Below are positions 1-58,523 of a stretch of DNA of 64,000 nt, one piece after another; positions within the stretch are counted from its first letter, which is position 1, and each line of letters opens with the position of its first letter. The stretch is from NCBI GenBank assembly GCA_019695305.1, contig JAIBAG010000001.1:18774-82773 (forward strand), in the 5' to 3' direction. This stretch comes from a bacterium (lineage in GTDB: Bacteria; UBA10199; JAIBAG01). The notes below the pieces were generated by a model. It was given only the letters and a program-made list of their open reading frames with translations. It had not been told where the DNA came from and searched no databases. The position numbers were made by a program, and so were the translations under genes.

Positions 1-1453
1 CATTGCCTTCATAAAAAGCTCTTAACGTTTCATCCACTACATCCTTCACGCTTTTAAAATTCTGATCTTGGCCAAAAATATCATCCCCTTTAAAATAATT
101 TTTAATGAGCTCAAGGCGAAAGATAATTCCTAGAATATTTTCGTTTATATGCCCGGTTACATTTTGTATAGTTGATACAAGTAATGCATATTCATCCACT
201 AATCTGTCTTTTGCTTCAGCATTTAAACGGGGCCATGTTGTATTAATAATAGGCGCTATTCGCTCATCATGAAAAGCCTCATCCAGTAAACGCGCTACCC
301 AGTTGGCATTATCTTTTAACCCCCCCGGGATATCGTGGCGTAATGCATGGCCGGTTTCTGCTTCAAGTGTTTCTTCATTAAGAATTCTTGCTAAAGCCCT
401 ATGCGCCAAATCGTCCGGAATAATGCGTGCATGGCCCGTTACAATATCACGGTACATTTTTTCTAGTTTACGCCATGTAAGATCAAGATTTGCTACTCTC
501 TTTTTTTCTGCAGGTAACAGTGGATAAAGATATTCTGCTAAATATCGTGCCTCTTGCCAGGTTAATAAATCAGGTCTTGTATAGTCTTGCCCAGTGCCTA
601 TTATTGAACTCGCGTCAATAAAACCGCATTTTTCTAATGCATTAATAAATTCACGCCGTTTTTCTGCGTTGTGACCGATGTACTGAACAACATCATTCGT
701 TATTTCTATTTCACCTAAATCATAATAAAGGCACATCTCTAACGCCACATTTGGCTTTTCACCTGCTTGCATGCACAGGATAAGAATTTTTTTAATTTCG
801 GGATAATCGGGTTCATCTTCTGTAAAACCGGCTTCTTCTAAAATGGCTTCAGCGGTTTCTGATATATTTTCATCATCACCGGCGCTCATACGCAGGCCCT
901 CAATCTCCGGTTCTTCTGGCTCTGCATGGGGCTTTGGGGGGATAACAAGGGGCAATACAGGCTCCCCTGGTTTTTTATGTTGCTCTTCCGGGTCTACAAC
1001 AACAGTGGGGGTATTTTCCAAATCAATCTCTTGTTCTTGGTACGGTGAAAAACCCAGTTCACTAGTTTCTGTATTGTGACTTTCCAATTCACAAACACCT
1101 AAATCAATTTCCAAATTTTGAGGTGTTTCATAATGAACAGAATTTTTGCCTAATACAGGACCTCTAAAAGTAAAAACCATGCCCTTATCAATTACTGGAG
1201 CATGGCAAGCGTAGGGATTTGCTAATTCACAATATACTCCAGGAGTTAAAAAGGCACCTAAGGCTAAGGCGCTTGTTGCGGGCGCAGCAATAGGGGTACG
1301 CACTGCCTTTTTAGCCACTTCTTTTGCCGCACTGGCAGCGGGAATAACAATTTGAGGTGGTGGCATTACAAAAGCTGGTAAAGGTTCTGACCTTGCTTCT
1401 TCAAACCACGATGTTTGATCGAGATACAGAGTCGTTAAATCGACAGGGCTCAT
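1..1453 (-). CDS. Hypothetical single-pass membrane protein. It is partial: the ATG lies at 1451-1453 and the C-terminus runs past the left edge of the window.
   Basis: Continuous minus-strand frame from the ATG through position 1. One predicted TM helix (ALALGAFLTPGVY) is followed by a Pro/Glu-rich linker. The first ~80 aa resemble the N-terminus of the next gene (1459..2454). Confidence 0.5.
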   Translation of the reverse strand, partial: MSPVDLTTLYLDQTSWFEEARSEPLPAFVMPPPQIVIPAASAAKEVAKKAVRTPIAAPATSALALGAFLTPGVYCELANPYACHAPVIDKGMVFTFRGPVLGKNSVHYETPQNLEIDLGVCELESHNTETSELGFSPYQEQEIDLENTPTVVVDPEEQHKKPGEPVLPLVIPPKPHAEPEEPEIEGLRMSAGDDENISETAEAILEEAGFTEDEPDYPEIKKILILCMQAGEKPNVALEMCLYYDLGEIEITNDVVQYIGHNAEKRREFINALEKCGFIDASSIIGTGQDYTRPDLLTWQEARYLAEYLYPLLPAEKKRVANLDLTWRKLEKMYRDIVTGHARIIPDDLAHRALARILNEETLEAETGHALRHDIPGGLKDNANWVARLLDEAFHDERIAPIINTTWPRLNAEAKDRLVDEYALLVSTIQNVTGHINENILGIIFRLELIKNYFKGDDIFGQDQNFKSVKDVVDETLRAFYEGN

Positions 1454-1458
1454 AAAAA

Positions 1459-2454
1459 TTAATCGATCCCGGGAGGTTTTGCACTGCCTTTTTCAATTGA
1501 AAAAAATTGAGATAAGTACTGCACGGCAGGATCTAAACCAGATACATCATCATGTGAAAACATGGTTGCTTCACCAAAATATTGATCATTTTGAGTAGGG
1601 AAATTTCCGCTTTGACCATCCACAAGCATGTCTCCACTCTCATCAATTCTTATCCACCCCGCTGCAATACCCCTTGGGGCAATACGATCCGCCATTTTAG
1701 CAGCATAAGCCCCTGCCATATGCGCATCTGTTGGCCTGATGAGGTAGAGATAGTAATGATCTTTCCCATCTGTTCCATTAGTTTGACGCACCAAATGATA
1801 TTTGTATGCTCCAGAAAAACTTTTCGTAGTATCAGCGCCATAATATTGAATTGTTAATTTATTTCCATTGTCCAACATAATTGTAACGCGTTTGGGAAAA
1901 GTTGTTTTAGCACGCGATGTGTTATTTTTCCAATTTAGCTCTGTTAAATCGGATACCTTCTCACTTATGTGTTGTTCGTTTGATTCTGGATTATCTGCGC
2001 TCATCATAATTTCTTCGCTTGCAGATTCTTTGGGCTCTTCGGGATTGCGTGGAATTATAACCACTGGGGCCGAAGGCGGTTGGCCAATTGTGGTAGCGGG
2101 ATCGGACAAAGGAGAAAATTTAATTTTTGTTTCGGGGTTTTCTAAATCAACTTCTGGATCTTCGTAAGGAGTAAAACCAGGTTCTTCAAGGGTTGGATTA
2201 ATATCCTCCTCGCTGCCACTCAAATACCACACGGTACCAAGGCTGCCTGCAGCCAAAGCAAGGCCCCACGGTCCAGGTATTTTGGGTAACCTTGCAAAGC
2301 GTGCGGCATTTACGGCCAAACCTTCAGTGGCTTGTGGTAAAAACGGGGGGGCAAATAAAGGCAACGGTGCCGGATCACTTTTTTCCGGAAGTACCGATTC
2401 GTTTTCGTAAAAATACCAAGGTGTTTGTAAACCGTTTATTGCATCAGTTCCCAT
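1459..2454 (-). CDS. Hypothetical single-pass membrane protein of 331 aa with a Pro-rich linker. Its N-terminus is paralogous to the partial gene at 1..1453.
   Basis: ORF from the six-frame track. A TM helix (GLALAAGSLGTVWYL) is followed by a PEEP-rich linker and a C-terminal globular domain. It sits directly downstream of the large secreted protein in the same orientation. Confidence 0.55.
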   Translation of the reverse strand: MGTDAINGLQTPWYFYENESVLPEKSDPAPLPLFAPPFLPQATEGLAVNAARFARLPKIPGPWGLALAAGSLGTVWYLSGSEEDINPTLEEPGFTPYEDPEVDLENPETKIKFSPLSDPATTIGQPPSAPVVIIPRNPEEPKESASEEIMMSADNPESNEQHISEKVSDLTELNWKNNTSRAKTTFPKRVTIMLDNGNKLTIQYYGADTTKSFSGAYKYHLVRQTNGTDGKDHYYLYLIRPTDAHMAGAYAAKMADRIAPRGIAAGWIRIDESGDMLVDGQSGNFPTQNDQYFGEATMFSHDDVSGLDPAVQYLSQFFSIEKGSAKPPGID

Positions 2455-2457
2455 AAA

Positions 2458-4803
2458 TTATCCTAATTTTCGTTTTAAGAAATAAATCCCCATAAGCGGC
2501 ATCCACAACATAACAAATGCCAAATTAAAACTGCTGTTAGCAGGTGCTAAACTACAACCACCACCGCTGCTGCCACCAGCTTTGTTGCTATCGCCAGGGT
2601 TTTGGCTATTGCCTGTATCGGTACCAGTTGGGCTGGTTTCGGGATCGGAGGTAGTTTCAGAGTCGTCTGATACTTCCGGCTCGTCAGACGGGTCGGATTC
2701 TTCGGAGATGTCCGATTCGTCCGATTCACCTGAAGTATCACCACTATCTACTTCTTCGTTATTAACCGTATCCACACAATCGGCCAAACCATCGCTATCA
2801 ACATCGCTAAAGCTTTCATCAATAGCGCCGTCGCCGTCGTTGTCTAAACCGTCACATTCTTCGGTGTCTACGCAATCGGCAACACCATCGGTATCGTTAT
2901 CTGAAAATCCTTCGTCAATAGTGCCATTGCCATCATTATCAAGTCCGTCGCACGTTTCTTCTTCGGCACAGTTCATAACGCCATCGCCGTCGGTATCACC
3001 TGTATCCAAACCTTCGTCATATTCACCGTTGCAATTGTTGTCTTCTCCGTCACAGGTTTCGGGAGAATCGGGTGTGAGTACGTTAATGTTATTGTCATCG
3101 CAGTCCTGATTATTAGTGACAAAATTGGGTGATGTTTTGCAGGTGTAAAATGATTCACCAGCTCCATAACCGTCGCTATCGCTATCCACATAATATTGTG
3201 TAGCAGCACAATTTAATTCGAATGCTCCTATGTCACATTTGGTATTGTTAGCGGGTATTGCAGTTCCAGCTTGATCGTAAGATAAAGGTAAGCCATCAAT
3301 ATTGGTGCATTGTGTATTTTCAGCTGCATCCAAGGCTAAACCGGCTATGGTAGGAAGATAGCCCGCTTTATAACCATTCAGTATAATTGGATCTACAGAT
3401 ACTTGAGCGTCATCGCTTACAAAAGTAGTTACATCTGTTTCGGTTGAGTACACCACATCGCTACCCACAACACTTAAGCCTACAATATGAATAATAGTAT
3501 CGGGATAAGAACTGGCGTAGTTATCCATATAAATTTCGTTAGTAGCGCTGTTGTTGTGATTGTTTTGATTAAAAATGTTGTGCTTAAAAATAGCGGCAGT
3601 TTCGGTGATGTCGGTAAAATATATTCCGCCACCTTGAGGATCGGTGCTCGTGGTTTCAACAGTATTGTTTACAATAGTGGAATACGAAATGGCTAATGGG
3701 GTATTACTATAAATACCACCGCCTTGAGGGTTGCCATCATTAAGCATAGATATGGCTTTGTTATCGATAATACTAATTTGATTTAAACTAACTTGGGCGA
3801 TTGAAATGTAGTCGCTTGGTTGACGATCGACAATATATAGCGCTCCGCCTTGGCTGGCCTGATTATTGGCAAAGTTTATTTGATTGGCATCTATATTTAA
3901 AGGTATGAGACAGGTGTTTACATCGAGGCAAGCTGTAGATTGAGTAAATGCAAAAGCACCACCATGCAAAGCCTTGTTATTGTTAAACTGGATTTGTCCG
4001 CCTAGTAGAGATGAGTTTTCGAGATTGATGGCGCCACCGTCGGTAGCGGATTCATTTCCATCAAATATCATTTTAGCAAGGAAAGTATAGCCAGTGTCTG
4101 CATAAATAGCGCCGCCGCCAAGTGCAGCTTTGTTGTTTTTAAAAATGTTATAGGCTGTTGGTATAGCGTCACTAATATTGGAAATTAAAAGACCTTTAGA
4201 TGACTTAATGGCACCGCCGGTTCCTGCAGTTGTATTGTTTTCAAACACGCAACCATTTAAGAGATTAATTGAGCCCTTGCCAAAAGTTGTGGCATTTAAA
4301 ACGATGGCGCCTCCACCAGAAAACGATGTTGTAGACGCGTTATTTAAAAATGAGGTGTGATTAAGTGTGATGGAAAAATCGCCTGTTATGCCAAGAACAC
4401 CGGCTGAGGTATCGGTAAAATTTTGAAAGGTCAAATTTTCAAAATTAACTTTTTTAGCGCTTGTCGTTGAAAAATTGCTGGTTAAGATATTGGAAAAGCG
4501 GCGGTTTGCGTTATTGGTTCCATCTATCACCGCTGGGTTTGTAGAAGTTCCTTTTATGGTGAGTTCGGCACGAATACTCATGCGTCCTAAATCGATTGAA
4601 TACGGACCTTCCTGATTAAGTTCGATAGTATCAAGATCAGCTGTTAGATTGGCCTTAAGTATAGCTTCGCGGAGAGAGCAATCGGTATCGCAGGCACCGT
4701 CATTTGTATCGGCTGTTTTAGTAACCATGATGGTTTCGGCCTGGGCTGCAAGTGAAAAAAAAGTGAGCGTTAAAAGTGCTAAAAGTTTAATTGTATGTTT
4801 CAT
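2458..4803 (-). CDS. Large secreted beta-helix repeat protein with MopE-like Cys/Asp repeats, an acidic Ser/Asp/Glu tail and a MYXO-CTERM-like C-terminal sorting signal
   Basis: Signal peptide MKHTIKLLALLTLTFFSLAAQA. The ATG at 4801-4803 is preferred over the upstream extension, and a GAGGAT Shine-Dalgarno sits 7 nt upstream. GGGAI/GGAL beta-helix repeats of the pectate-lyase/Pmp type are present. There are four CDG(E/L)DNDxNGxxDE repeats. The C-terminus is GGGCSLAP, then a hydrophobic stretch, then KRK. Confidence 0.7.
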   Translation of the reverse strand: MKHTIKLLALLTLTFFSLAAQAETIMVTKTADTNDGACDTDCSLREAILKANLTADLDTIELNQEGPYSIDLGRMSIRAELTIKGTSTNPAVIDGTNNANRRFSNILTSNFSTTSAKKVNFENLTFQNFTDTSAGVLGITGDFSITLNHTSFLNNASTTSFSGGGAIVLNATTFGKGSINLLNGCVFENNTTAGTGGAIKSSKGLLISNISDAIPTAYNIFKNNKAALGGGAIYADTGYTFLAKMIFDGNESATDGGAINLENSSLLGGQIQFNNNKALHGGAFAFTQSTACLDVNTCLIPLNIDANQINFANNQASQGGALYIVDRQPSDYISIAQVSLNQISIIDNKAISMLNDGNPQGGGIYSNTPLAISYSTIVNNTVETTSTDPQGGGIYFTDITETAAIFKHNIFNQNNHNNSATNEIYMDNYASSYPDTIIHIVGLSVVGSDVVYSTETDVTTFVSDDAQVSVDPIILNGYKAGYLPTIAGLALDAAENTQCTNIDGLPLSYDQAGTAIPANNTKCDIGAFELNCAATQYYVDSDSDGYGAGESFYTCKTSPNFVTNNQDCDDNNINVLTPDSPETCDGEDNNCNGEYDEGLDTGDTDGDGVMNCAEEETCDGLDNDGNGTIDEGFSDNDTDGVADCVDTEECDGLDNDGDGAIDESFSDVDSDGLADCVDTVNNEEVDSGDTSGESDESDISEESDPSDEPEVSDDSETTSDPETSPTGTDTGNSQNPGDSNKAGGSSGGGCSLAPANSSFNLAFVMLWMPLMGIYFLKRKLG

Positions 4804-4933
4804 ATTCGATATCCTCAAAAAATGTTCGTACACTATTATCGGTTTAACATCTAAATAAGTTGCCTGGTTGGCTTATTTTTTTTAAAAAAAATAAATTCCT
4901 ATAATAACTAAATTAAATCAATAAGTTATATAA

Positions 4934-6250
4934 TTAGCTTAGCTCCGTGGCCATCATTTTGGCTGATAATACAGCCGATTCAATGGTGGCCGGGTAGCCG
5001 GTTTGGGTCCAGTCACCGATTACATAGAAATTATCGAAGGGGGATTTTTGAGGGGGGCGTAATTTGTCACTTTGAGGCGTAATCGACATGGTGGCATTTA
5101 CTTCCTTATTCACCAAGCTATGGATGAGTGAGGCTTCGTTTGCTTTGGGAAAAAGAGATTTAAATTCACTCAAAGCAAAAGCCATGATCTCTTCTTTCCC
5201 ACTATTCAAGAGATCATAAGCCCCGCTAATAACCCCCATATAATGATACGGTGGATGCGTGATATCGGATATTCTATTTTTATCAAACCACCAATGCACC
5301 TTTTTATCGGCCGCCCCCACAAACATATCGTCCATTATCGGGCGATCGAACCATAAGTTGATGGAAACAATTGGCGCTGTTTCTATTTTTTTAAGATTCG
5401 AAAAATAAGGAAGTTTTTCTACAAAACCTTCGGGAATAAGAGGCAACAAAGAGTTAGGCGGGAGGCTACTCACTACGAGATCCGCTTTAAAATGTTCTTT
5501 ATCCGTTTCTACCATCTGAACTTTGTTATCGAGCACATGAATTTTTTTTACACCACATCCTTTTATTACCTTGTGCCCTCTTAGTGTAAGATACTGCTCG
5601 GCCGGGTTAGCCAAAATATCGGAGAGATGCGTTTTAGCAATAATCAAACGTGAGTCAAAAACACTGCCTAAAATTCCTTTGGCCAATACTACAGCGAGCA
5701 TTGAAGCGGAGGCGCGTTTAGGATCATCATTGAGAGTAGCCAGCGTTAAGATATCCCAAAAATTTTTCTGAGAAAACTCGCTTTGATTTAATTTTTTAAG
5801 CCAGGGGGTAACGGTTAGCCCTTCCATATCATTTTTTTGGAGCGATTTTTGAAGTGCCACAAGCCCCAGCTTGTCTTTGAATGTAAGCGCTTTAAAGTTA
5901 AGAAAGGCGCGTAATAAATTAAGCGGTGGTTTTAAATCTGTAAGCTTAAAAATAGTTTTTTCGCCGTTTTCTAAAACAAGAGGAACTACGGTGGGATTTA
6001 AAATATTAAGATGGCGTTTTACACCCAGATAATCAAATAATTTAAGCGTTTCGTGATACGCTCCCATCATGAGATGCTGTCCGTTATCCACCCAGCTTCC
6101 CGTTTTTTTATCCTGAAAGGCATAGGCGCGCCCGCCCAAGAGAGGTTTCCGTTCGATTAAGGTGACAGCATAGCCCAACGCATCCAAATGGATAGCGGCG
6201 GCAATACCCGCAAAACCTCCGCCGATGATGATGGCCGTATTTTTACTCAT
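4934..6250 (-). CDS. hpnE: FAD-dependent oxidoreductase, HpnE-like squalene-associated desaturase (hydroxysqualene dehydroxylase)
   Basis: N-terminal Rossmann fold IIIGGGFAGIAAA...LIERKPLLGGRA, then DNGQHLMMGAY, the pattern of the HpnE / amine oxidase family. The internal ATG at 6248-6250 is chosen as start. Confidence 0.65.
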   Translation of the reverse strand: MSKNTAIIIGGGFAGIAAAIHLDALGYAVTLIERKPLLGGRAYAFQDKKTGSWVDNGQHLMMGAYHETLKLFDYLGVKRHLNILNPTVVPLVLENGEKTIFKLTDLKPPLNLLRAFLNFKALTFKDKLGLVALQKSLQKNDMEGLTVTPWLKKLNQSEFSQKNFWDILTLATLNDDPKRASASMLAVVLAKGILGSVFDSRLIIAKTHLSDILANPAEQYLTLRGHKVIKGCGVKKIHVLDNKVQMVETDKEHFKADLVVSSLPPNSLLPLIPEGFVEKLPYFSNLKKIETAPIVSINLWFDRPIMDDMFVGAADKKVHWWFDKNRISDITHPPYHYMGVISGAYDLLNSGKEEIMAFALSEFKSLFPKANEASLIHSLVNKEVNATMSITPQSDKLRPPQKSPFDNFYVIGDWTQTGYPATIESAVLSAKMMATELS

Positions 6251-6252
6251 GA

Positions 6253-7167
6253 TTATGTTCGTAAGGGCACACGGCCGTGTGCCCCTACAAGACAATGTTG
6301 CAAACAATTTTCTAAATTTGGATATTGAAACTGAAACCCGACTTTTGTTAACACGTGCGGATATACACGCGTGCTACCCAATAATAAATTTTGAGCCATC
6401 TCGCCCAACGCTAGTTTTAAAGCAAAGCCTGGTACAGGTAAAACTGTTGGTCGCTTTAAAACCTTACCGAGCGTTGCGGTAAATTCTTTATTAGTCACAG
6501 GCTGTGGAGAAACCAAATTTACCGGACCTGTTATTTCTTTTTGCACAATAAATTGAAACGAATTTATCCAATCGTCCAAATCAATCCAGCTCATATATTG
6601 CTGGCCGCTCCCCACAACACCACCTGCCCCCATTTTAAACGGCAAGTACATTTTAGATAACGCACCACCTTTAAGACTCAACACAATACCCGTGCGTAAA
6701 TAAGTGATAGGAACATTTTTTAAATGCTTAGTTTCATTTTCCCAGGCTACGCACACTTCTGGCAAAAAACCTGTGCCAGGTTCTGATTTTTCATCCAGCT
6801 TTTCATCACCACGCAACCCATAATAACCAATGGCCGAAGCTTGAAGATAATGTGCCGGTTTATTTTTAACTTTATTAAGAGCACCGCACAAAAGACGGGT
6901 AGATAAAATGCGGCTATCAATAATTTTCTTTTTTTGTTTATCGGTCCAGCGACCCGCGGCAATATTTTCACCGGAGAGATGAATAACAACATCGAAATTC
7001 TCAAGACTTTTTGGATCTAAAACTTGTTTTTCAATATCCCAAAAAATTTCGTTTTTATTTTTCGGCTGATGACGAACTAATTTATAAATTTGATCGTCAG
7101 GAAATGACTGGCTAATAGCCTGACCAATTAATCCCGAAGCACCTGAAATGAGAATTCGTCTCCCCAT
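6253..7167 (-). CDS. TIGR01777 family epimerase/oxidoreductase (YfcH-like, SDR fold with a DUF1731 C-terminus)
   Basis: N-terminal MGRRILISGASGLIGQ Rossmann motif. Length and C-terminal region fit YfcH. The start is taken at the MGRR ATG at 7165-7167. Confidence 0.7.
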   Translation of the reverse strand: MGRRILISGASGLIGQAISQSFPDDQIYKLVRHQPKNKNEIFWDIEKQVLDPKSLENFDVVIHLSGENIAAGRWTDKQKKKIIDSRILSTRLLCGALNKVKNKPAHYLQASAIGYYGLRGDEKLDEKSEPGTGFLPEVCVAWENETKHLKNVPITYLRTGIVLSLKGGALSKMYLPFKMGAGGVVGSGQQYMSWIDLDDWINSFQFIVQKEITGPVNLVSPQPVTNKEFTATLGKVLKRPTVLPVPGFALKLALGEMAQNLLLGSTRVYPHVLTKVGFQFQYPNLENCLQHCLVGAHGRVPLRT

Positions 7168-7349: not shown

Positions 7350-7939
7350 GGATACAAACGCCCCACCACCCACTCCCCTTTTTCATTTTTACGATAGACA
7401 AAGCGATCGTGCAGGCGATACGGCTGCTCTATCCAAAATTCAATTTTAGAAGGATTTACTCTAAAACCACTCCAATGGGGCGGACGCGGAATTTCCTTAC
7501 CCTTAAACTTTTCAGAAAATTCCTTAAAACGTTTCTCTAAAGTATCACGGCTATCTAACACTTCACTCTGAAGGGAAGCCCAGGCGCCAATTTGGCTATC
7601 TAAAGGACGGGAACGAAAATACTCATCGGCTTCAGCATCACTAACAACACTAACCTTACCTTTAATACGCACCTGTTTTTTTAATTTTTCCCAATAAAAA
7701 TTAAGTGCTGCAACAGGATTCTTTTTTAAAGCGCGTCCTTTCGACGAATTAAAATTGGTAAAAAATACAAAACCATTTTCGTCAAAGCCTTTTAGTAAAA
7801 CAGTGCGGATGTCTGGATACCCGTTATCATCAAGAGTAGCCAGCATCATAGCCTCGGGCATGGAAAGCCCTGCATTTTTTTTGGCTTCTTCAAACCATTG
7901 GCCAAATTGCACAATAGGATTTGGGTTGAGTGCACTCAT
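7346..7939 (-). CDS. pdxH: Pyridoxamine 5'-phosphate oxidase
   Basis: Full-length match to the PdxH family, including the RTVLLKGFDENGFVFFTN region and the C-terminal WxGxR...P motif. Confidence 0.9.
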   Translation of the reverse strand: MSALNPNPIVQFGQWFEEAKKNAGLSMPEAMMLATLDDNGYPDIRTVLLKGFDENGFVFFTNFNSSKGRALKKNPVAALNFYWEKLKKQVRIKGKVSVVSDAEADEYFRSRPLDSQIGAWASLQSEVLDSRDTLEKRFKEFSEKFKGKEIPRPPHWSGFRVNPSKIEFWIEQPYRLHDRFVYRKNEKGEWVVGRLYP

Positions 7940-8913
7940 TAATTTCCCAACACATAGTTAAAAACGAGCGGCGCTACAATGGATGCGTCCGATTCAATAA
8001 TAAAACTGGGTGTGTCGATATTGAGTTTACCCCAAGTAATTTTTTCGTTCGGTACCGCACCGGAATAAGACCCGTATGATGTCGTAGAATCGGAAATTTG
8101 GCAAAAATAACTCCAGTAAGGTACATCGTGCCATTCCAAATCCTGGTACATCATGGGCACCACGCAGATGGGGAAATCGCCGGCAATACCACCACCAATC
8201 TGGAAAAAGCCAACGCCTTTTCCGGAAGAGTTTTGTTTATACCAATCGGCTAGCCACACCATGTATTCGATACCGCTCTTCATGGTAGACGCTTTGAGTT
8301 CTTTTTTAATGACGTACGAGGCAAAAATATTGCCCATGGTAGAATCTTCCCAGCCTGGCACAATGATGGGGATATTTTTTTCGGCCGCAGCCAGCATCCA
8401 AGAATTTTTAGGATCGATTTCGTAATATTGTTTTAATTCGCCCGAGAGCAAAATTTTGTACATGTACTCGTGCGGAAAATAACGTTCGTTCTTTGTTTCG
8501 GCATCTTTCCACACTTTATGGATATGCTTTTGCAAACGACGGAATGCTTCTTCTTCGGGAATACAGGTGTCGGTCACGCGGTTATAGTGATTTTCTAAAA
8601 GATCCCATTCTTGTTGTTTGGAAAGCTCTCGATAGCCCGGCACTCGCTTGTAGTGTGAGTGGGCTACCAGGTTCATGATATCTTCTTCCAGGTTAGCACC
8701 CGTACATGAGATGATTTTCACTTTATCCTGGCGTATCATTTCGGCAAACGAAATACCCAATTCGGCCGTACTCATGGCACCGGCCAGACTTACCAGCATT
8801 TTGCCACCTTGGTCTAAATGGGCAATCCAGCCATCGGCCGCATCACGCACCACAGCGGCATTAAAGTGTTTGTAATTTTTTTGGATAAACTGGGTAATGG
8901 GTCCTTTTGTCAT
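7939..8913 (-). CDS. Deoxyhypusine synthase family protein (DHS-like, possibly homospermidine synthase-like)
   Basis: GGGIAGD and SGAVPNEKITWGKL motifs parallel the GGGIIKHH and SGARPDEAVSWGKI motifs of DHS. Length is 324 aa. Confidence 0.75.
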   Translation of the reverse strand: MTKGPITQFIQKNYKHFNAAVVRDAADGWIAHLDQGGKMLVSLAGAMSTAELGISFAEMIRQDKVKIISCTGANLEEDIMNLVAHSHYKRVPGYRELSKQQEWDLLENHYNRVTDTCIPEEEAFRRLQKHIHKVWKDAETKNERYFPHEYMYKILLSGELKQYYEIDPKNSWMLAAAEKNIPIIVPGWEDSTMGNIFASYVIKKELKASTMKSGIEYMVWLADWYKQNSSGKGVGFFQIGGGIAGDFPICVVPMMYQDLEWHDVPYWSYFCQISDSTTSYGSYSGAVPNEKITWGKLNIDTPSFIIESDASIVAPLVFNYVLGN

Positions 8914-9116
8914 ATATTAGATCTCCTGTGTATGCCGTATGTAGGAAAAAACCCCAAAATGGTCCACTTTTTTTTAAAACTATCCATTTTTTATTTGACG
9001 TAAACCCCAAATCTTAATATCCACCCTGTTCTGTATCCTATATTGGATATAATCTCTCCTCCGATGGTTTGGAAGATGGATTGGGCATATTGCCCGTATT
9101 ATTTAATGGAGTATCT

Positions 9117-9332
9117 ATGAAAACACGCGGTCGCGTAAAATGGTTTAACGATTCTAAAGGTTTTGGTTTTATCGAGCAGGACAATGGCCAGGATGTATTT
9201 GTTCATTATTCAGCCATTGGTGGTGACGGTTATAAATCCCTCCAAGAAGGTCAGGAAGTTGAGTTTGAACTTCAAACTGGTGCTAAGGGCCCTATGGCTC
9301 AAAACGTAACCAAAGTTGAAGCTAACGCTTAA
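9117..9332 (+). CDS. Cold-shock protein, CspA family
   Basis: KGFGFI and [11 protein letters not shown] motifs. ATG at 9117 with a GGAG Shine-Dalgarno 7 nt upstream. The 5' UTR is long. Confidence 0.9.
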
Positions 9333-9401
9333 TCTTTTAAACGTTTCTTAAAAATTGAGTTTAAAATTCCCGCTCTATAAGCGGCATGGTTTTTTGCGGC
9401 C

Positions 9402-15454: not shown

Positions 15455-16360
15455 ATGAATGCTCCCACGCTTCATTCTGCAAGCCCTACGCCTCCCCAAA
15501 AGCCATCTGTATCGCTGGCCGAGGCTTATACCTTTTGCCTAAAATTGGCTCAGGGCCATTATGAAAATTTTCCTGTAGCTTCTTTTATTTTACCTAAAAA
15601 AATTCGTAAGCCGGTTGCCGCTATTTATGCCTTTTCACGAACGGCCGACGATTTTGCCGATGAAAAGGAACATGAAGGTTTGCGGATGGAAAAATTAAAG
15701 GACTGGGAAAAAGAATTAAAAACAATGGATTCTTCCCAAAACCCCATTTTTATTGCCTTAAACGACACGGTTAAAAATTTTAATGTGCCCGTATCGTTAT
15801 TGTCTGATCTTCTAACCGCTTTTAAAATGGATGTAACCGTAAACCGTTACAATAATTTTGAACAACTCTTAAACTATTGCCGCTATTCGGCCAATCCCGT
15901 AGGGCGTTTAGTTCTTACAATTATGGGGTATCCGGCTCCCAAGTTTATGGAGTATTCCGATTATATATGTACCGCTTTGCAACTGGCCAACCATTGGCAA
16001 GATGTTGGTATTGACGTTGATAAAAACCGCGTGTATCTCCCGCACGAAGATATGCTGCGCTTTGGCTATACCGAAAATGATCTTTTGGCTAAACGCTATA
16101 ATGTGCAATTTAAGAGGTTAATGAGTTTTGAAGTAGAACGCGCTATGGAACTTTTTGAGCAAGGAAAGCCTTTATGCGCTCTCTTACCTGGCCGTTTAGG
16201 TTTTGAAATACGTCTCACCTGGTTGGGTGGCGTGAGTATTCTTAAAAAAATAAAGGAAGTAGATGGTGACGTTTTTAACCATCGTCCACAGCTCACTAAA
16301 ATGGAAATGGCTAAACTTGCGTTTAACGCCTTGAGCCGAAACCACTTTAAAGGTATATAA
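15455..16360 (+). CDS. hpnC: Squalene/phytoene synthase family protein, HpnC-like (hydroxysqualene synthase)
   Basis: YENFPVASF motif and Asp-rich boxes (DDFADE) of trans-isoprenyl diphosphate synthases. Typical hpnC-hpnD gene order. Confidence 0.72.
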   Translation: MNAPTLHSASPTPPQKPSVSLAEAYTFCLKLAQGHYENFPVASFILPKKIRKPVAAIYAFSRTADDFADEKEHEGLRMEKLKDWEKELKTMDSSQNPIFIALNDTVKNFNVPVSLLSDLLTAFKMDVTVNRYNNFEQLLNYCRYSANPVGRLVLTIMGYPAPKFMEYSDYICTALQLANHWQDVGIDVDKNRVYLPHEDMLRFGYTENDLLAKRYNVQFKRLMSFEVERAMELFEQGKPLCALLPGRLGFEIRLTWLGGVSILKKIKEVDGDVFNHRPQLTKMEMAKLAFNALSRNHFKGI

Positions 16361-16365
16361 ACAAC

Positions 16366-17247
16366 ATGACTTCTAAAGTTGAAATACTTCCTAGCGATGA
16401 AGCCTTAAGTGGCCTGCCCAACGCAGCTACCATTACAGCCAGAGCCAAATCTAATTTTTCAAGTGCCTTTATTTTTTTGCCAGCCGAAAAACGCCTTGCC
16501 ATGAAGCGCGTATACGCTTTTTTTAGAGTTATTGACGATGTAGTCGATGAAGAACCCAATCCACTTCGCCAAAAAACCTTAATTGATTCGTGGAAACGTG
16601 AACTAGACAACACCTATAAAGGCACTACTATCGTTCCCTTACTTCAGGAACTTAAGGAATCTATCGATCGATTTCATATTCCAAAAGATTATTTTTTAAA
16701 GCTCATTGAAGGCTGTGAAATGGATATCACCAAAACTCGTTATGAAACTTTTGAGGAATTATACGAGTACTGCTACCGGGTTGCATCCATGGTGGGGCTT
16801 GTGTGTATGAAAATTTTTGAATTTGAAAGCCCTACATCTCAAAAAACAGCAATCGATTTGGGAATTGCCTTACAACTCACCAATATTATTAGAGACGTAG
16901 GTGTAGATTATTTTACCAAAGGCCGTATTTATTTGCCGTATGACGATTTAAAACGTTTTGGGATTACGGCTAACGATATTGAAAATAAAACAATGACACC
17001 CCCATTGCGTGCACTTCTTAATTTTCAATACGAACGGGCTGTACGTTATTACGAAAGCGGTGTGTCGGAATTTAACAACGATAAGCACAACAAACTACTG
17101 GCTGCCCGTATTATGGCCAGCGTTTACCGCACCATTTTAGAAAAAATTCGCAAAAAAGATTATCCTGTGCTCGAACCCAAACCTCTTAAGCTTAGCTTTA
17201 CCCGAAAAATGCTTATTTTGGCCCGTGTAATGCTTTTTTCGCACTAA
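16366..17247 (+). CDS. hpnD: Squalene/phytoene synthase family protein, HpnD-like (presqualene diphosphate synthase)
   Basis: SNFSSAFIFLP and VIDDVVDE motifs. 293 aa, directly downstream of hpnC. Confidence 0.72.
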   Translation: MTSKVEILPSDEALSGLPNAATITARAKSNFSSAFIFLPAEKRLAMKRVYAFFRVIDDVVDEEPNPLRQKTLIDSWKRELDNTYKGTTIVPLLQELKESIDRFHIPKDYFLKLIEGCEMDITKTRYETFEELYEYCYRVASMVGLVCMKIFEFESPTSQKTAIDLGIALQLTNIIRDVGVDYFTKGRIYLPYDDLKRFGITANDIENKTMTPPLRALLNFQYERAVRYYESGVSEFNNDKHNKLLAARIMASVYRTILEKIRKKDYPVLEPKPLKLSFTRKMLILARVMLFSH

Positions 17248-36139: not shown

Positions 36140-38755
36140 TTAATCATACCAATGGTATCTAATGTCGTTATATTCCTCCATCGTATAACAGGTTACGTTA
36201 TCGGGCATGGTATCAACAGCCAGCACCTTACCTTCAAAACTATTGATATCCACCACGCATTGGTAATCGGCCACAATTAAATCATATTGTGCCTTCATGG
36301 TTGCTTGGTCTGTTTCTACCCATTTGCCGTTGTCCACATGCCAGCCTCTAAATTGAAGTTTTATATCGGCATATTCACCACAATCATCCCGTGTGGCATA
36401 AAGGCCGGGCACTTCCGACACCAAGAAAAAACCATTTCCAGCAAAATAAAGCTCTTCTCCGTAGCAAACATGAGTAGTGGCCGTCGGTACACTCATTTCA
36501 TCTAACGGCGTGCTGGCAAAAACATCATCTGGTGTGGTGATGGCCATTTTATAGGAATCGTTGACTGTTGTTTTTCTAACCCAATACTCATTCACTACCG
36601 CCTCATAAACAGTGTTAGGTAAATGAATGTCTAATAGAGCATGGCTTTGCCAGGTATCGGTTTTGTAAAAAATGTTGATGAGATAGTTTGAAAAACTCAT
36701 GGCCACATTTTCGTCAAAACTTAAAGCACGTTCAGCGCTTGTGTTAAGCTCAAAAGTAGCCACGTCATTAATTTGATTTCCATCCACATCAGCAATTTGC
36801 AGACGATCTTTATAAGAATATCCCAAGCCATCTACAAAGCCCGAACTTGTAAAAGGAAGAATAATTCTCTTCAGCGATTCATCAACCCGAACCACCTGGT
36901 CATCATTATCGGCCAAAGAACTATAATTTTGATAATCGGTGCCTAACAATAAGGCATCTTGTTCGGCGCCCGTTAAATCAAATAAATTTACTGTTCCCAT
37001 GCTCTGACGGCTTTCTGCTGCACCATAAAAGGTAGTGCCAAAAGCAAGCAATTGATTATCCAAAACAAACATTTGAGACAAATCTCCCGCCAATGCAATA
37101 TCACTATCCAAAACAGGAATTGCAGGGTTTGTTAAATTAACCGCATGGAGAGTGCTCAAATCCATGACATCATAATAGTTAGAATTATCGGTGGTATTGA
37201 CAAAAAGTTTTTCCGGCGAAAACTGAGAAGCCGAAATTCTTTCAGCATCTGTACCAATACCCTCCAAAACATTGGTTTCAATTACAGAATTGCCCTGCAA
37301 TGAAAATGTGTTTAATTCATTTTCGGTAGATAACGCATAAAAGAATCCCTCGTTAAAATAGAGGCGGCTTAAATCATCAACATGGCCTTTAATTTCAACC
37401 GGGTTTTGTGTGATGTTAATTTTATTAGTACTAACAGTTGAAAGAGTATCATCCAAACGAATAAAATTATCGTTTTCAAAACGGTAGATGGTAAAACGAG
37501 TGGATAAATCATCCCTATAAATGGGGTAGTCGTCTGTTTTTGTAATTGTCTGTGTACACACTTGATACGTAACATCTTCACATTCGGTCCCTTTATTGAC
37601 ATAGATATAACGACTTAAACTAGGACCTTTAGATTGCAGACATTCTAACAAACTCCCACGGCACGAAACTGTAGATCCCTGCGCTACATAATCTGGATTA
37701 GGTACTTTTTCCCACTCGATATGACACACTTCTTTTGTAACCTGTCTATAAGCAGTACATTCTTGATAAGTACGCTTTTCGTAATGGTCTAATACCATTT
37801 CATTATGAGAGCGGCTTACCACTAAATAACGATCACTGGCACTTACAAAATTATTGTAGCGTGTCCACGACGAAACCACATCGGCATCATCTTTTTCTTC
37901 CTCATAAAGAAAATCATCATGCGATGTTTCTAAAAGTTTATCGTTTGTTGCTATAATGGTGAGTGAATAATTTTTAGGTTCTTGATAATACCAGTATGGT
38001 ATAGGCTCCGGATCTTCATCCGAAAAAGTTTGTGTATAAACGGCCAGTGTATGATTAAACAAGCGGGCATCTACAATAAATTTGTTCTCTAAAAACACAC
38101 CGCTGTCATAAATCAAATTGCCATTTTCAATAGTGTACTTAAGAACGCCGCCACTTTTACCATCCAAACTGTTGGTAAAAACAAGAATGGCATTATCTTT
38201 TAAAATAAAATTTTTAGGAGATCCCGGTAAAGTTACGGCACAACTGATTTTGCTGGCCACAGGATTAGCGCTATTAACATCCGCCATAAATAAACCAAGG
38301 GGCCTGGATAAATACAAAGCATGATTTTGTTCTTGAGCTACAAGATCGGGGCGAAGAATCTCAACTGATGCAGGGCTTAATGCCACATCTTCTACTAGGT
38401 CCCAGCCTTCAAATCCCGATAACACACGGGGATTGGTATCGTCTTCAGCAACTGGTATTTGATAAGGTTTAGAAAACCCACCTAATTCATCCGAAATAGT
38501 TTTAAAGCTATCGCTATTTGGAAACTCACAGCGAGACGATACGAGCGGATCAAACGAGAGATATTGACGCATTTCATCGGTTGATAAGCTGGTTACAGAT
38601 GCGTTTAAAACAGAGAGACTATCTGGCATTTCCCCTTTTGGTTTAATTACAAGCTTATTATCTTTAGTTTCTGTACTGCTATTACTACTACTATTGCAGT
38701 TGATGACAAAAAAAATCAAAGACACACTTAAAAAATTTCGTATTAAGTTTTTCAT
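36140..38755 (-). CDS. Large hypothetical lipoprotein of 871 aa
   Basis: Signal peptide with a Cys lipobox (FFVINC), then a Ser-rich linker and a long beta-rich region. No motif recognised. Confidence 0.55.
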   Translation of the reverse strand: MKNLIRNFLSVSLIFFVINCNSSSNSSTETKDNKLVIKPKGEMPDSLSVLNASVTSLSTDEMRQYLSFDPLVSSRCEFPNSDSFKTISDELGGFSKPYQIPVAEDDTNPRVLSGFEGWDLVEDVALSPASVEILRPDLVAQEQNHALYLSRPLGLFMADVNSANPVASKISCAVTLPGSPKNFILKDNAILVFTNSLDGKSGGVLKYTIENGNLIYDSGVFLENKFIVDARLFNHTLAVYTQTFSDEDPEPIPYWYYQEPKNYSLTIIATNDKLLETSHDDFLYEEEKDDADVVSSWTRYNNFVSASDRYLVVSRSHNEMVLDHYEKRTYQECTAYRQVTKEVCHIEWEKVPNPDYVAQGSTVSCRGSLLECLQSKGPSLSRYIYVNKGTECEDVTYQVCTQTITKTDDYPIYRDDLSTRFTIYRFENDNFIRLDDTLSTVSTNKINITQNPVEIKGHVDDLSRLYFNEGFFYALSTENELNTFSLQGNSVIETNVLEGIGTDAERISASQFSPEKLFVNTTDNSNYYDVMDLSTLHAVNLTNPAIPVLDSDIALAGDLSQMFVLDNQLLAFGTTFYGAAESRQSMGTVNLFDLTGAEQDALLLGTDYQNYSSLADNDDQVVRVDESLKRIILPFTSSGFVDGLGYSYKDRLQIADVDGNQINDVATFELNTSAERALSFDENVAMSFSNYLINIFYKTDTWQSHALLDIHLPNTVYEAVVNEYWVRKTTVNDSYKMAITTPDDVFASTPLDEMSVPTATTHVCYGEELYFAGNGFFLVSEVPGLYATRDDCGEYADIKLQFRGWHVDNGKWVETDQATMKAQYDLIVADYQCVVDINSFEGKVLAVDTMPDNVTCYTMEEYNDIRYHWYD

Positions 38756-49622: not shown

Positions 49623-50471
49623 TTAATTCTTCAATCTTTTCTCTTCTTTTTTCTCTCTAACTTTTTTCCTTTGTACTTTCTTAATACTGTCAGGGGTTGG
49701 CAAGTGCTCTGGCATGGTACCACCTAATTCTTTTATGGTTTCCCTCACCTTTTGGCCCACATTATAGTGGGTTTGATTAGCTTGAAATTTATTTTGATGC
49801 GGTTCTCGCTTGAGTTTTTCTTCTGTTTGGGTAGCACGAAATAAATTAGCAGCTAATTCTGTACTTCCCATATGATCCAAAATTTTTTGACTTTTCTTTA
49901 AGTTTTTTTTCGAATGAATATCCTTCGCTCCTAAACCCCCATATAGTCCTTTGTAACCAAAATCCTGAAAAATAGCATAATCAAGAGGTTCTCTTACTCC
50001 CGCTTTTTTAGCTACCTCGGCAAGGTGAATATTATGCTTGGAAATTTCATCACGCAAAAGTAAACGTTTTTCATTTTCACGATCTTGCTCCGAAAGCTCC
50101 TGTTTCCTGGTTTGAATTGCAAAATAGGTTTGGCCTTTGGCTACTATTTCTTTGGAGGGATCAGCATTTTGGACAATCAAATAACAAGCATACCGCGATA
50201 ACAAAACAGTGGGCATCACCCTATTTGCTCCTGACCCGAGAACCACATTTTCTGTGGTATCAATAAAATGCTGTTCGGCGATATTACCACTATTGATACA
50301 GGCCAACTTTGCTTTATCGATAACGGCTTGAAAATTTCTATACTCGAAATATTCAAGTATCTTTCCTAAATCACGAGACGACCAATATTCTTTTCCATTG
50401 GGATCCATTTTTTTGGCTATTTCAAAAATATTTTTGGAACCGACCATCAAATCATCTTTTTTCTCTTCCAT
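49623..50471 (-). CDS. dinD: DNA-damage-inducible protein D (DinD) family, with Bro-N-like N-terminal domain
   Basis: N-terminal DPNGKEYWSSRDLGKILEY...RNFQAVIDKAKLACINSG...HF pattern matches the DinD family as recalled. Lys/Glu-rich C-terminal tail. Confidence 0.65.
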   Translation of the reverse strand: MEEKKDDLMVGSKNIFEIAKKMDPNGKEYWSSRDLGKILEYFEYRNFQAVIDKAKLACINSGNIAEQHFIDTTENVVLGSGANRVMPTVLLSRYACYLIVQNADPSKEIVAKGQTYFAIQTRKQELSEQDRENEKRLLLRDEISKHNIHLAEVAKKAGVREPLDYAIFQDFGYKGLYGGLGAKDIHSKKNLKKSQKILDHMGSTELAANLFRATQTEEKLKREPHQNKFQANQTHYNVGQKVRETIKELGGTMPEHLPTPDSIKKVQRKKVREKKEEKRLKN

Positions 50472-50579
50472 ATGATAACCTCTTGTTTTTTATACAAAAC
50501 CATTTCGTGCATACCCACGAGATGGTCCATATCACTCCATAAAGAGTTCACTTTTCAAGAGAAAATATCTTAGGATCAC

Positions 50580-50597
50580 TTTGCCAAAGCTGGCAAA
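50580..50597. promoter_or_regulatory. Palindromic candidate operator TTTGCC-N6-GGCAAA, site 1, upstream of the dinD-like gene
   Basis: TTTGCCAAAGCTGGCAAA followed by ATGATCC. A second copy with the same architecture lies 117 bp away. Confidence 0.4.
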
Positions 50598-50696
50598 ATG
50601 ATCCAAGCAACCTAAAGTAATTTTCATAGGTGTAAAAATTACTAAATAATCTTTATTTATCAATAATTTTTGATCATGCCTGGCCAAAAGCACCAT

Positions 50697-50714
50697 TTTG
50701 CCGGCATTGGCAAA
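50697..50714. promoter_or_regulatory. Palindromic candidate operator TTTGCC-N6-GGCAAA, site 2
   Basis: TTTGCCGGCATTGGCAAA followed by ATGGTAT. The extended motif TTTGCC-N5-TGGCAAAATG is shared with site 1. Confidence 0.4.
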
Positions 50715-50873
50715 ATGGTATGGAGCGGTTACATCTCTATACAGTATCTGGCACCGAGCTATTCTGAATAAAAATCGATTCTAACATTGAATCGAGAGTT
50801 AGATATTTGTCTGGTAATTTTAATAAATTGTAATTAGGACATGCTTACAAAATTCTGAAATAAATATAGTGAA

Positions 50874-51227
50874 CTATAAACCCCATCTCCGAAGACAATT
50901 ATTATAATTTCGTTTTGCTTCTTGATAATCACTATCTGTGATAGTTTTTTTCATAAATATACTATATTTAGATTTTCGTTCGGGTGATAATTCATCATAT
51001 TCAAAGCCAGATATATATCGAGATAATGAAGAATCATCCTCATATATTTGTAATAATCGATAATCAATATTTTTTTGAATTACCCAATTAATATACCCAT
51101 CATACTCGTGCCTTTGACAATAAGATCGAATGCCCATTGGGCGTAATTGAAACCAAATAAATAATAAAAAGCCGATAATAGATCCTATAACTATTTTATT
51201 TTTTTTAGTCATATAAATATAGTGCAA
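50874..51227 (-). CDS. Hypothetical small membrane-anchored protein of 117 aa
   Basis: N-terminal TM helix (IVIGSIIGFLLFIWF) then a soluble domain. AT-rich codon usage. Confidence 0.4.
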   Translation of the reverse strand: MHYIYMTKKNKIVIGSIIGFLLFIWFQLRPMGIRSYCQRHEYDGYINWVIQKNIDYRLLQIYEDDSSLSRYISGFEYDELSPERKSKYSIFMKKTITDSDYQEAKRNYNNCLRRWGL

Positions 51228-51378: not shown

Positions 51379-52029
51379 TTATTGTTGGAAGCCTAATAGC
51401 CATAGCGCCACAAAATTATTAAAAAAGTGGCAAAGGATACAGAGCCACAAGTTTTGTTCTTTAGCGTACAAGCGGCTGATGTAAAACCCCAACACTAAAA
51501 GTCCGGGTAAAAACCAGGGATTTAAATGCGCTACGCCAAATACAATGGTTGCTGTTGCTACCGCAAAAGACGCACTCTGTTTTTTTAAGAGCGCATTGAG
51601 ATAAAAACCTCTAAAGAAAAATTCTTCGCACACAGCAGGCATCAACGCATAAAACGCCACATCACGCACGTTACTAAAACTAGCATCCTGCGGCATCATA
51701 TTTAAAATCCATTCGGGGATAGGAAAAAAATAATCGGTAAGGGTGACGAGTGACATGGCTATAAACGAAACCGCCAGCATTTGCAGAAGTATTTTAAAAA
51801 TTAATTTGAGAGAAGGAAAACTTAAAGATGGATCCTCCGCCTTAGGCGGACCGGAATGACGATGGGTGATTATATAAACAACCCCAGGAATTAAAAAAAA
51901 GGCAATTTGCGCCACATATAAATAATCCATCCCCAATACCTGTCCGGTGAGATGGTAAAGAATAATAAGAATAATGGCTAAAAAGTGGAGCATGGATCCT
52001 TTCTTGATTTTCCTTCCACAACCTGCCAA
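51379..52029 (-). CDS. CPBP family intramembrane glutamic endopeptidase (CAAX protease / bacteriocin self-immunity type)
   Basis: Motif 1 EEFFFRG, motif 2 FGVAHL and motif 3 HFFNN across multiple TM helices. Confidence 0.75.
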   Translation of the reverse strand: MAGCGRKIKKGSMLHFLAIILIILYHLTGQVLGMDYLYVAQIAFFLIPGVVYIITHRHSGPPKAEDPSLSFPSLKLIFKILLQMLAVSFIAMSLVTLTDYFFPIPEWILNMMPQDASFSNVRDVAFYALMPAVCEEFFFRGFYLNALLKKQSASFAVATATIVFGVAHLNPWFLPGLLVLGFYISRLYAKEQNLWLCILCHFFNNFVALWLLGFQQ

Positions 52030-52038
52030 ATACCCCTT

Positions 52039-56654: not shown

Positions 56655-56875
56655 TGGTTGTAAGACCTAGTAACCATAAAGCCGAGCGATGCTTGTCTCT
56701 ATGGAACTAGCTCTAAAGGAAGTCCGGTGTAATTCCGGCACGGTCCCGCCGCTGTAAGCTGGGGGTCTTTTTAAGATCAACCTCTGTGCAAAGCAAGTCA
56801 CTGTCCCGAACTATCGGGGTGGGAAGACCGCACAAGAGGCCAGCAAGTCAGAATACCAGCCAATCCATTCAAAAT
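56655..56875 (+). ncRNA. Cobalamin (B12) riboswitch
   Basis: Core AAAGGAAGTCCGGTGTAATTCCGGCACGGTCCCGCCGCTGTAAG fits the consensus GGGAA..GGTG.AA.TCC..GC.G.CCCGCCACTGT. A downstream AGTCACTG...GGGAAG and a B12-box-like AGTCAGAATACCAGCC are present. A sigma-70-like TTGACA lies at 56618. The element sits in the 5' leader of the lipoprotein gene at 56993. Confidence 0.8.
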
Positions 56876-56992
56876 TATTTGGATGTGCAGTGCGAGCGAC
56901 ACTTTGTTTTGGTTCCTTCCTTTTGGAATTTTTCCCCAAGACATCGTCTGTTCTCGCTTGTTGAAAATATAAAAATTCAACAGGAGAATCCC

Positions 56993-58345: not shown

Positions 58346-58523
58346 GTAGTCTTCTGTGGTTTTTTCCCCGCATGTTTTTTACAAGTTTTCTTTTCTCACT
58401 TTTTACCACCTATAAATAGTTGATTTATATATATAATTTTAAATCATTTTTCTTTATTTTGGCTTCAAAATTGCATATCTATTGATTGGGCACAATTAGG
58501 GAAATCAACACTTGGAGGACCCT

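Follow-up and report, generated by a model that had tools for sequence, protein, structure and literature searches.

Among the C-terminal tripartite signals which, together with intramembrane 'sortases', decide what Gram-negative bacteria show on their surface, the closest described counterparts of the locus analysed in this work are the Cys-type signals, whose mechanism is described in the Haft preprint (10.1101/2023.06.07.544157) and in PMC11980579. In the MYXO-CTERM/MrtX system (e.g., TraA of Myxococcus xanthus), the client protein is exported by Sec and is composed of an N-terminal functional domain, a Cys-rich stalk and a tripartite Cys tail, there are several clients per genome, and the sorting enzyme is expected to be unlinked; MYXO-CTERM helices are free of Pro and charged residues (10.1101/2023.06.07.544157). 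JDVT-CTERM signals have a single Cys followed nine residues on by a nearly invariant DP, and occur about once per genome beside the CPBP-family protease MrtJ (10.1101/2023.06.07.544157). The locus in question consists of three genes, encoding the proteins P1, P2 and P3, at positions 1-4833 of a 64,000-nt stretch of bacterial DNA (the window; GTDB lineage Bacteria; UBA10199; JAIBAG01; GenBank assembly GCA_019695305.1, contig JAIBAG010000001.1, forward-strand positions 18,774 to 82,773), which lies on a 324-kb contig of a metagenome-assembled genome (here the K1X76 genome, after the locus tags of the trio, K1X76_00110 to K1X76_00120). The best explanation, to which we give a probability of about 0.5, is that of a lineage-specific operon in which P1 would be a Sec-exported protein with a variant Cys-type sorting tail, and P2 and P3 would be its envelope accessory partners. 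Compared with known surface-sorting systems, it amounts to a modest, lineage-specific variation and no new kind of system, P2 and P3 being the unexplained part. A tail that lies outside the curated models yet keeps the Cys would extend the class to another lineage and would provide a compact set of clients for enzyme search. Should P2 and P3 indeed work together with the surface protein, they would make up a new accessory module. In practice the finding carries limited weight, since a single metagenome-assembled genome and a single 1.8-kb contig are known to contain the system.

P1 shares with the MYXO-CTERM/MrtX clients the Sec export, the N-terminal functional domain, the Cys-rich stalk, the tripartite Cys tail, the presence of several clients per genome and an expected unlinked sorting enzyme. 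It differs from them in that its tail fails the MYXO-CTERM models TIGR03901 and TIGR03382, has a single Cys in GGGCS[LM] and a polar spacer, contains Pro in its helix and carries KRK where MYXO-CTERM has a run of Arg; no Mrt equivalog is found in the window, and P2 and P3 are unrelated to TraB. With JDVT-CTERM/MrtJ it has in common the single Cys and the best, although sub-threshold, hidden Markov model (HMM) resemblance, and some rare JDVT loci possess extra conserved neighbours thought to work with the mature protein, as P2 and P3 are read here; unlike JDVT-CTERM, the P1 tail has no DP, is present in at least four copies and not in one per genome, has no adjoining CPBP gene, and is found in a lineage other than Pseudomonadota.

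The three genes are co-directional on the minus strand and were all judged real. Gene 1 (2458..4803, minus strand; 781 aa plus stop) starts with the ATG at 4803, which has a GAGGA Shine-Dalgarno sequence 8 nt upstream; the list of open reading frames (ORFs) had a 791-aa ORF with a GTG start (2458-4833). The 781-aa product matches the database protein P0004 exactly, an NCBI 'CSLREA domain-containing protein', and a prior inspection of the letters and the ORF list (the sequence-only reading) had described it as 'giant' with 782 aa, one residue too many for a protein that is not giant. Gene 2 (1459..2454, minus strand; 331 aa plus stop; K1X76_00115, annotated as hypothetical) has an ATG preceded 7 nt upstream by AGGA, which is located within the end of gene 1. 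Gene 3 (1..1453, minus strand; K1X76_00110) has its ATG at 1453 and runs past the window start, the window containing the first 484 of the 616 aa of the full product (P0003). The stop of gene 1 and the ATG of gene 2 are separated by 3 nt, the stop of gene 2 and the ATG of gene 3 by 5 nt. The only other relative of the trio is a 1.8-kb ENA contig (L001), in which a P1-like, a P2-like and a P3-like gene follow one another in the same order: the upstream product shares 49% identity with P1 aa 584-781, tail included, and ends in ...SSGGCSLNTNQNNVNLAVLFLWLPLVSVLLLKRKQG; the P2-like protein is 43% identical to P2, its gene overlapping the P1-like gene; and the downstream ORF begins with MPPIDYTKIYLEQTSW, as P3 does. 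Because of the co-directional arrangement, the 3-nt and 5-nt gaps and the same order in L001, the trio forms a lineage-specific operon, as the sequence-only reading had also maintained on the organization of the genes. The AT-rich 130-nt intergenic region 5' of gene 1 (4804..4933, minus strand), which separates it from the stop of an upstream HpnE-like amine oxidase gene, is probably the promoter region. In a promoter consensus scan of positions 1-6500, promoter-like sites were no more numerous than in shuffled sequences and none was found within 4804..4933, the sole nearby minus-strand site (4818-4790) extending into the P1 start codon. Taken as a whole, the consensus scan for promoters and terminators gave no useful information.

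The sorting-type tail of P1 (aa 746-781; 2461..2568, minus strand) is tripartite, i.e., a Cys in a short signature (S-GGGCS-L) is followed, after a polar spacer, by a transmembrane (TM) helix, FNLAFVMLWMPLMGIYFL, and a basic cluster, KRKLG (full string SSGGGCSLAPANSS-FNLAFVMLWMPLMGIYFL-KRKLG). Between the Cys and the helix there are about 8-12 polar residues, the helix has a Kyte-Doolittle 19-residue mean of 1.65 and a summed Hessa dG of +2.6, and the basic cluster is Lys-rich and not Arg-rich. The helix contains a Pro (WMPLMG; LWLPLV in L001) and so departs from the TM helix without Pro or charged residues that is described as typical (10.1101/2023.06.07.544157).

Three paralogues of P1 were identified in the same genome by exact look-up: P0011 (K1X76_06530), P0140 (K1X76_12000) and P0081 (K1X76_00435); with P1, at least four proteins of this genome carry the tail. 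The motif S-[SA]-[GA]-GGCS-[LM] is found in all four, and in P1, P0011 and P0140 it is followed by a polar spacer, a helix and KRK or KRQ. Since the beta-helix parts of the paralogues are only ~32% identical to P1, the tail signature is selectively retained and no chance feature. P0081 (1400 aa; same 324-kb contig, outside the window) stops straight after ...SSAGGCSLNANN, without hydrophobic helix and basic cluster, and its ending may come from a frameshift or mark a pseudogene, or the protein may be a form that is naturally shortened and released. An exhaustive HMMER search with P1 gave 11,582 matches, nearly all of them via the MopE-type repeat region. Among the best 150 of these, P0011, P0081 and P0140 are the only full-length matches, GGCS[LM] tails are found in exactly four, all from the K1X76 genome, eight have other tails with a Cys, a hydrophobic helix and a basic cluster (mostly of the MYXO-CTERM type), and many others end differently. 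A GTDB scan with the beta-helix N-terminus found only distant CSLREA proteins, spread over 13 genomes from many phyla and having other C-termini; a widespread body with varied C-termini fits the 'choice of anchor' idea, that is, a body taking different anchors, here with a lineage-specific one. The homologue search with P1 aa 1-535 missed the 32%-identical paralogues.

According to one alternative, the tail would be an uncleaved C-terminal inner-membrane anchor, P1 would be periplasmic, and the neighbouring genes would be unrelated and merely co-transcribed. The locus has no linked sorting enzyme, P2 and P3 have no detectable function, and the tail is common to full-length paralogues only, all of which speak for this alternative; but S-GGGCS-[LM] is nearly invariant despite the ~32% identity of the bodies and is present in the orthologue as well, which is unexpected for such an anchor, the trio synteny has been kept at 43-49% protein identity, and a PMP-type beta-helix on an acidic spacer is typical for surface display. 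We regard this alternative as unlikely.

The complete tails of P1, P0011, P0140 and L001 (the P0081 tail is too short) were scanned against NCBIfam at E <= 10, with seven canonical Cys-type tails from the same P1 hit list as positive controls; the cut-offs are 20 bits for TIGR03901 and 15.85 bits for TIGR03382 (both MYXO-CTERM), 27 bits for JDVT-CTERM (NF033191) and 15.5 bits for GlyGly-CTERM (TIGR03501). None of the four tails gave a match to TIGR03901 or TIGR03382, whereas six of the seven controls reached some curated cut-off and five a MYXO-CTERM one (TIGR03901, e.g., 29.4, 25.4 and 26.3 bits). These results bear on the possibility that P1 is an ordinary MYXO-CTERM protein sorted by the myxosortase MrtX, MrtC or MrtP, as in Myxococcota. 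The Cys-containing tripartite shape would agree with it, and so would the MopE-type repeats, which are common in MYXO-CTERM proteins, the fact that five of the seven scanned among the eight other Cys-type tails (out of 150) reach a MYXO-CTERM cut-off, and the number of clients per genome, which is closer to MYXO-CTERM than to JDVT-CTERM. The negative scans with controls that pass, the Pro in the helix, the Lys-rich basic cluster, the polar residues between Cys and helix, and a window CPBP protein that matches neither MrtX nor MrtC nor MrtP at E <= 1e-3 make this assignment improbable. Of the sequence-only reading, which had called the tail MYXO-CTERM-like, the tripartite Cys tail is supported and the family assignment is not, the nearest model being JDVT-CTERM (16 bits versus the 27 required).

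JDVT-CTERM was indeed the only recurring model (P1 16.1, P0011 14.7, P0140 23.4 and L001 10.5 bits, all below 27), the P0140 match having E = 4e-5 and covering model positions 1-33 of 35. This single matching model, with P0140 as its best case, and the GGG run before the Cys, which resembles GlyGly-CTERM, could be taken as signs of a JDVT-CTERM signal, with MrtJ as its enzyme, or of a GlyGly-CTERM signal, with rhombosortase. The DP hallmark, however, is absent in P1 (C-SLAPANSSFN), with only P0140 having an EP, at +7/+8; at least four copies occur here, where P2 and an HpnE-like oxidase are the neighbours, against typically one copy beside MrtJ; and none of the four tails matched GlyGly-CTERM at E <= 10, nor was a rhomboid noticed among the multi-pass ORFs of the window. 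This origin of the tail is therefore very doubtful. The P1 tail belongs to neither MYXO-CTERM nor JDVT-CTERM, because it lacks DP, has a Pro in its helix and is encoded next to genes for non-proteases; it has the features of the class, namely the invariant Cys, the tripartite shape and a similar length, and among the Cys-type, myxosortase-class sorting signals it reads as a variant specific to this lineage, outside the curated models.

A hydrophobicity screen of all 49 window ORFs of >= 150 aa followed by HMM scans found one CPBP (Rce1-like) intramembrane glutamic protease (51379..52029, minus strand; 216 aa; PF02517, 72.4 bits versus a cut-off of 22.4), located outside the operon, ~47 kb from gene 1. 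All three catalytic motifs are present, i.e., EEFFFR, FGVAH and HFFNN (EExxxR, FxxxH and HxxxN), and the gene overlaps with the 5' end of a divergent MscS-family gene (51985-53091). Among the NCBIfam models, MrtS gave 40.9 bits (cut-off 130) and MrtJ 30 bits (cut-off 75); MrtX, MrtC and MrtP gave no match at E <= 1e-3. Since CPBP genes are common (ten in Chondromyces crocatus; 10.1101/2023.06.07.544157), this protein is a lead only, a candidate for processing the tail. A bolder interpretation, which we consider rather unlikely, is that the tail represents a further uncatalogued Cys-type signal with its own Mrt-like CPBP sortase, and the module common to P2 and P3 a new family of envelope accessory proteins that would couple particular clients to the envelope.

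By its body, P1 joins the CSLREA / choice-of-anchor-Q beta-helix proteins as a new member, and it is predicted to be surface-displayed. It begins with a Sec-type signal peptide read from the sequence (aa 1-22; 4738..4803, minus strand; MKHTIKLLALLTLTFFSLAAQA/E, ending in AQA/E), which has no lipobox Cys and a Kyte-Doolittle 15-residue maximum of 2.03 at aa 5-19, followed by the CSLREA N-terminal domain (aa 25-52; 4648..4731, minus strand; TIGR04214, 39.9 bits versus a cut-off of 25), the CSLREA string itself beginning at nt 4680. A right-handed beta-helix with PMP/POMP-type repeats occupies about aa 130-420 (3544..4416, minus strand): Chlam_PMP (PF02415) scores 50-53.5 bits (cut-off 20.6) over 4-6 stretches, POMP_repeat (TIGR01376) 41.7 bits (cut-off 15), and a regular expression found eight GG[AG][ILF] turns at aa 164-394. 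The beta-helix with signal peptide that had been proposed from the sequence is thus borne out. P1 resembles chlamydial Pmps in these over-threshold repeats, but, unlike them, it gave no match to an autotransporter beta-barrel in Pfam and NCBIfam scans at E <= 1, and where the barrel would be, its C-terminus has the MopE repeats followed by the spacer and the sorting tail; this anchor is absent from the curated ones. The choice-of-anchor-Q-like region (about aa 490-530; 3214..3336, minus strand) scores 20.2 bits with NF041518 in P1, under the cut-off of 25; the three paralogues reach 25.7, 34.3 and 33.6 bits at the corresponding place and so pass it.

The MopE-type Cys/Asp repeats (aa 567-677; 2773..3105, minus strand) were located with PF11617 and with the pattern CDGxDN[DN]..DE. 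Four tandem repeats had been claimed; three are canonical (aa 584, 618 and 650) and one is degenerate (aa 568), each being followed by a DxDxDGxx[DN]C loop. PF11617 gives 25.4 bits with the whole of P1 and 30.8 bits, in two stretches, with aa 520-781 alone (cut-off 27), and no tandem repeat was found at the DNA level in gene 1. Judged by what is generally known of DxDxDG-type loops, those of P1 probably bind Ca2+, and the repeats probably form a short stalk stabilised by disulfides and Ca2+. Between the repeats and the tail there is a low-complexity spacer rich in Ser, Asp and Glu (about aa 680-745; 2569..2766, minus strand; composition count), in agreement with the acidic tract of ~70 aa noted before; in the orthologue fragment of L001 the spacer is likewise acidic/Pro-rich, with a different sequence.

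P2 and P3 share an N-terminal module. In P2 (aa 1-172; 1939..2454, minus strand) it consists of QTPW, a basic patch, a Gly/Ala-rich hydrophobic segment (aa 62-79) and then GFTPYEDPEVDLEN...PVVIIP...MSA; in P3 (aa 1-205; 839..1453, minus strand) of QTSW, a basic patch, a hydrophobic segment (aa 55-73), a Cys-containing insert and GFSPYQEQEIDLEN...PLVIPP...MSA. The DNA of the acidic motif is at 2137-2178 (P2) and 1013-1054 (P3). The Cys-containing insert, which P2 lacks, includes a second, degenerate acidic motif, YETPQNLEIDLGV (aa 107-119; 1097-1135, minus strand), ~25 residues before GFSPYQEQEIDLEN. After the hydrophobic segment, the two proteins align with BLASTP E = 4e-8 (35% identity over 92 aa) and a Smith-Waterman score of 114 versus 37 +/- 7 for shuffled sequences (0 of 2000 shuffles reach it), and the hhalign probability is 95.5%; the core of the similarity is GF[ST]PY[EQ]xxE[IV]DLEN, then P[VL]VI.P, then MSA. 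The N-termini proper (aa 1-80) score 47 versus 29.3 +/- 5.4, which 0.9% of the shuffles reach, and QT[PS]W is present at about aa 9-16 in four of four sequences (P2, P0002, P3 and the start of the third gene of L001). Judged by this strong similarity in the acidic/Pro-rich stretch, P2 and P3 are true paralogues. Both carry Pro/Glu-rich stretches, and their C-terminal parts are unrelated: that of P2 (aa 173-331, ~160 aa; 1462..1938, minus strand) is predicted to be beta-rich and belongs to no family, and that of P3 (~410 aa) is predicted to be all-alpha and ends in a clearly hydrophobic helix (aa 593-611). The sequence-only reading had likewise seen paralogues with Pro/Glu-rich linkers and unrelated C-terminal domains, although it placed the resemblance in the N-termini, which align marginally, and not in the acidic/Pro-rich stretch.

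The hydrophobic segments have Kyte-Doolittle 19-residue means of 0.89 (P2), 1.44 (P0002) and 1.45 (P3) and summed Hessa dG values of +5.1, +4.1 and +5.6, respectively. The charges upstream/downstream of the segment are +3/-5 in P2, +3/-4 in P0002 and +3/-1 in P3, which would fit an N-in, C-out orientation. The sequence-only reading had taken both for membrane proteins and dedicated partners in anchoring or processing, which with segments this marginal are putative roles. TonB/TolA-type proteins start with a short cytoplasmic part followed by a single hydrophobic segment, and continue through an extended Pro/Glu-rich stretch into a C-terminal domain. In architecture only, P2 with its beta-rich domain would be TonB-like and P3 with its long alpha-helical domain TolA-like; unlike TonB and TolA, the two proteins show no sequence or HMM similarity to these families, their hydrophobic segments are weak, and there are no ExbBD or TolQR neighbours in the window. 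P2 and P3 gave no Pfam, NCBIfam, PHROGs, PADLOC or PDB-sequence match. The AlphaFold2 models have a pLDDT of 31 (P2) and 38 (P3), of which only the secondary structure is informative. A 'C39-like peptidase' (3erv) match of P3 (13 bits, E = 0.21) was rejected, being not significant and a local alignment without conserved catalytic motif.

The module is rare. Among 5.8 billion proteins, the homologues of P2 were itself and one ENA protein (P0002, 43% identity), and P3 had none beyond itself, in line with the earlier remark that no member of the trio has a characterised orthologue. Relatives of P2 were not found in scans of GTDB genomes, JGI metagenomes or IMG/VR. A degenerate DNA pattern for GF[ST]PY[EQ]xxE[IV]DLEN, which recovers both window copies and the L001 copy, had no match in JGI metagenomes or IMG/VR, and an HMM of the shared module detected no third copy within the window. 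With nothing further from the genome, metagenome, virus and window searches, the module is, as far as can be seen, confined to this lineage. Nothing relevant was found in the literature on CSLREA, K1X76 or YUYA23.

Two readings of P2 and P3 may be compared here. They could be cargo or effectors, in which a conserved trafficking module is joined to a variable C-terminal 'payload' as in polymorphic toxins, with P1 as receptor or delivery device. The conserved module and the unrelated C-terminal domains have this pattern, and the orthologues P2 and P0002 resemble each other much more in the N-terminal module than in the C-terminal domain; on the other hand, no toxin, immunity or secretion-system match was found with Pfam, NCBIfam, PADLOC or PHROGs, only two carriers of the module are known, and neither has a Sec signal peptide, so that we hold this to be very improbable. 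The most economical reading would be that P2 and P3 are accessory or partner proteins of the mature surface protein, because the module is conserved, the C-terminal domains vary, the genes are tightly coupled to P1 and the synteny is kept.

By analogy with MYXO-CTERM/MrtX, P1 processing may be pictured in four steps, i.e., retention, Cys modification, cleavage and display. P1, composed of the CSLREA cap, the PMP-type beta-helix, the choice-of-anchor-Q region, the MopE-type stalk, the acidic spacer and the sorting tail, would be exported by Sec, and the tail helix would keep it in the inner membrane. The invariant Cys would be modified, probably by lipidation, and a CPBP-family intramembrane protease would cut beside it, after which P1 would sit at the cell surface, anchored by its lipid, with the stalk bearing a beta-helix that would serve as an adhesin or be carbohydrate-active. 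P2 and P3 would be N-in, C-out bitopic envelope proteins whose common module may dock on one shared partner, their differing C-terminal domains acting on or with mature P1; they would thus be accessory proteins of the cargo P1 and not the sorting enzyme. Several observations weigh against this scheme. The known tail carriers are all full-length homologues, so the conservation of the tail could partly reflect paralogy instead of a general sorting signal. The hydrophobic segments of P2 and P3 are marginal, the two proteins may not be membrane proteins at all, and their structure models, at the pLDDT given above, are too poor for use. No cognate sorting enzyme adjoins the trio, the CPBP gene being 47 kb off, far under every Mrt equivalog cut-off and of a common family. 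The co-occurrence support comes from one syntenic contig, and the system is known here from sequence alone.

The flanking genes in the window are housekeeping genes with no further functional link to the trio; the neighbourhood includes squalene genes, PdxH, a deoxyhypusine-synthase-like gene, a sigma-54 activator, GyrA, glycine cleavage and 2-oxoacid dehydrogenase genes. The squalene-pathway genes are split: the HpnE-like amine-oxidase-family gene (4934-6307, minus strand) is directly upstream of gene 1, and two tandem SQS_PSY paralogues (HpnC/D-like; 15455-17247, plus strand) are located 9 kb from it on the other strand. The gene of the deoxyhypusine synthase family (7939-8913, minus strand; PF01916, 137 bits) adjoins pdxH. 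Between it and the sigma-54 activator there is an Rfam match to the cspA 'thermoregulator' (8963-9349, plus strand; 82.9 bits versus a gathering threshold of 78), which could be a small cold-shock protein gene with its leader. An 871-aa ORF (36140-38755, minus strand) has no Pfam family at E <= 1e-6. The gene at 49623-50471 (minus strand), whose product has a Bro-N domain and strongly matches the equivalog model of DNA-damage-inducible protein D (NF008573, 380 bits), is followed by small orphan ORFs (50532-51227) and may be a mobile or prophage remnant. A cobalamin riboswitch (56670-56878, plus strand; 64 bits) lies directly before a 501-aa ORF (56786-58291, plus strand), and this ORF and a 492-aa one (58512-59990), neither with a Pfam match at E <= 1e-6, may be uncharacterised B12-related uptake genes.

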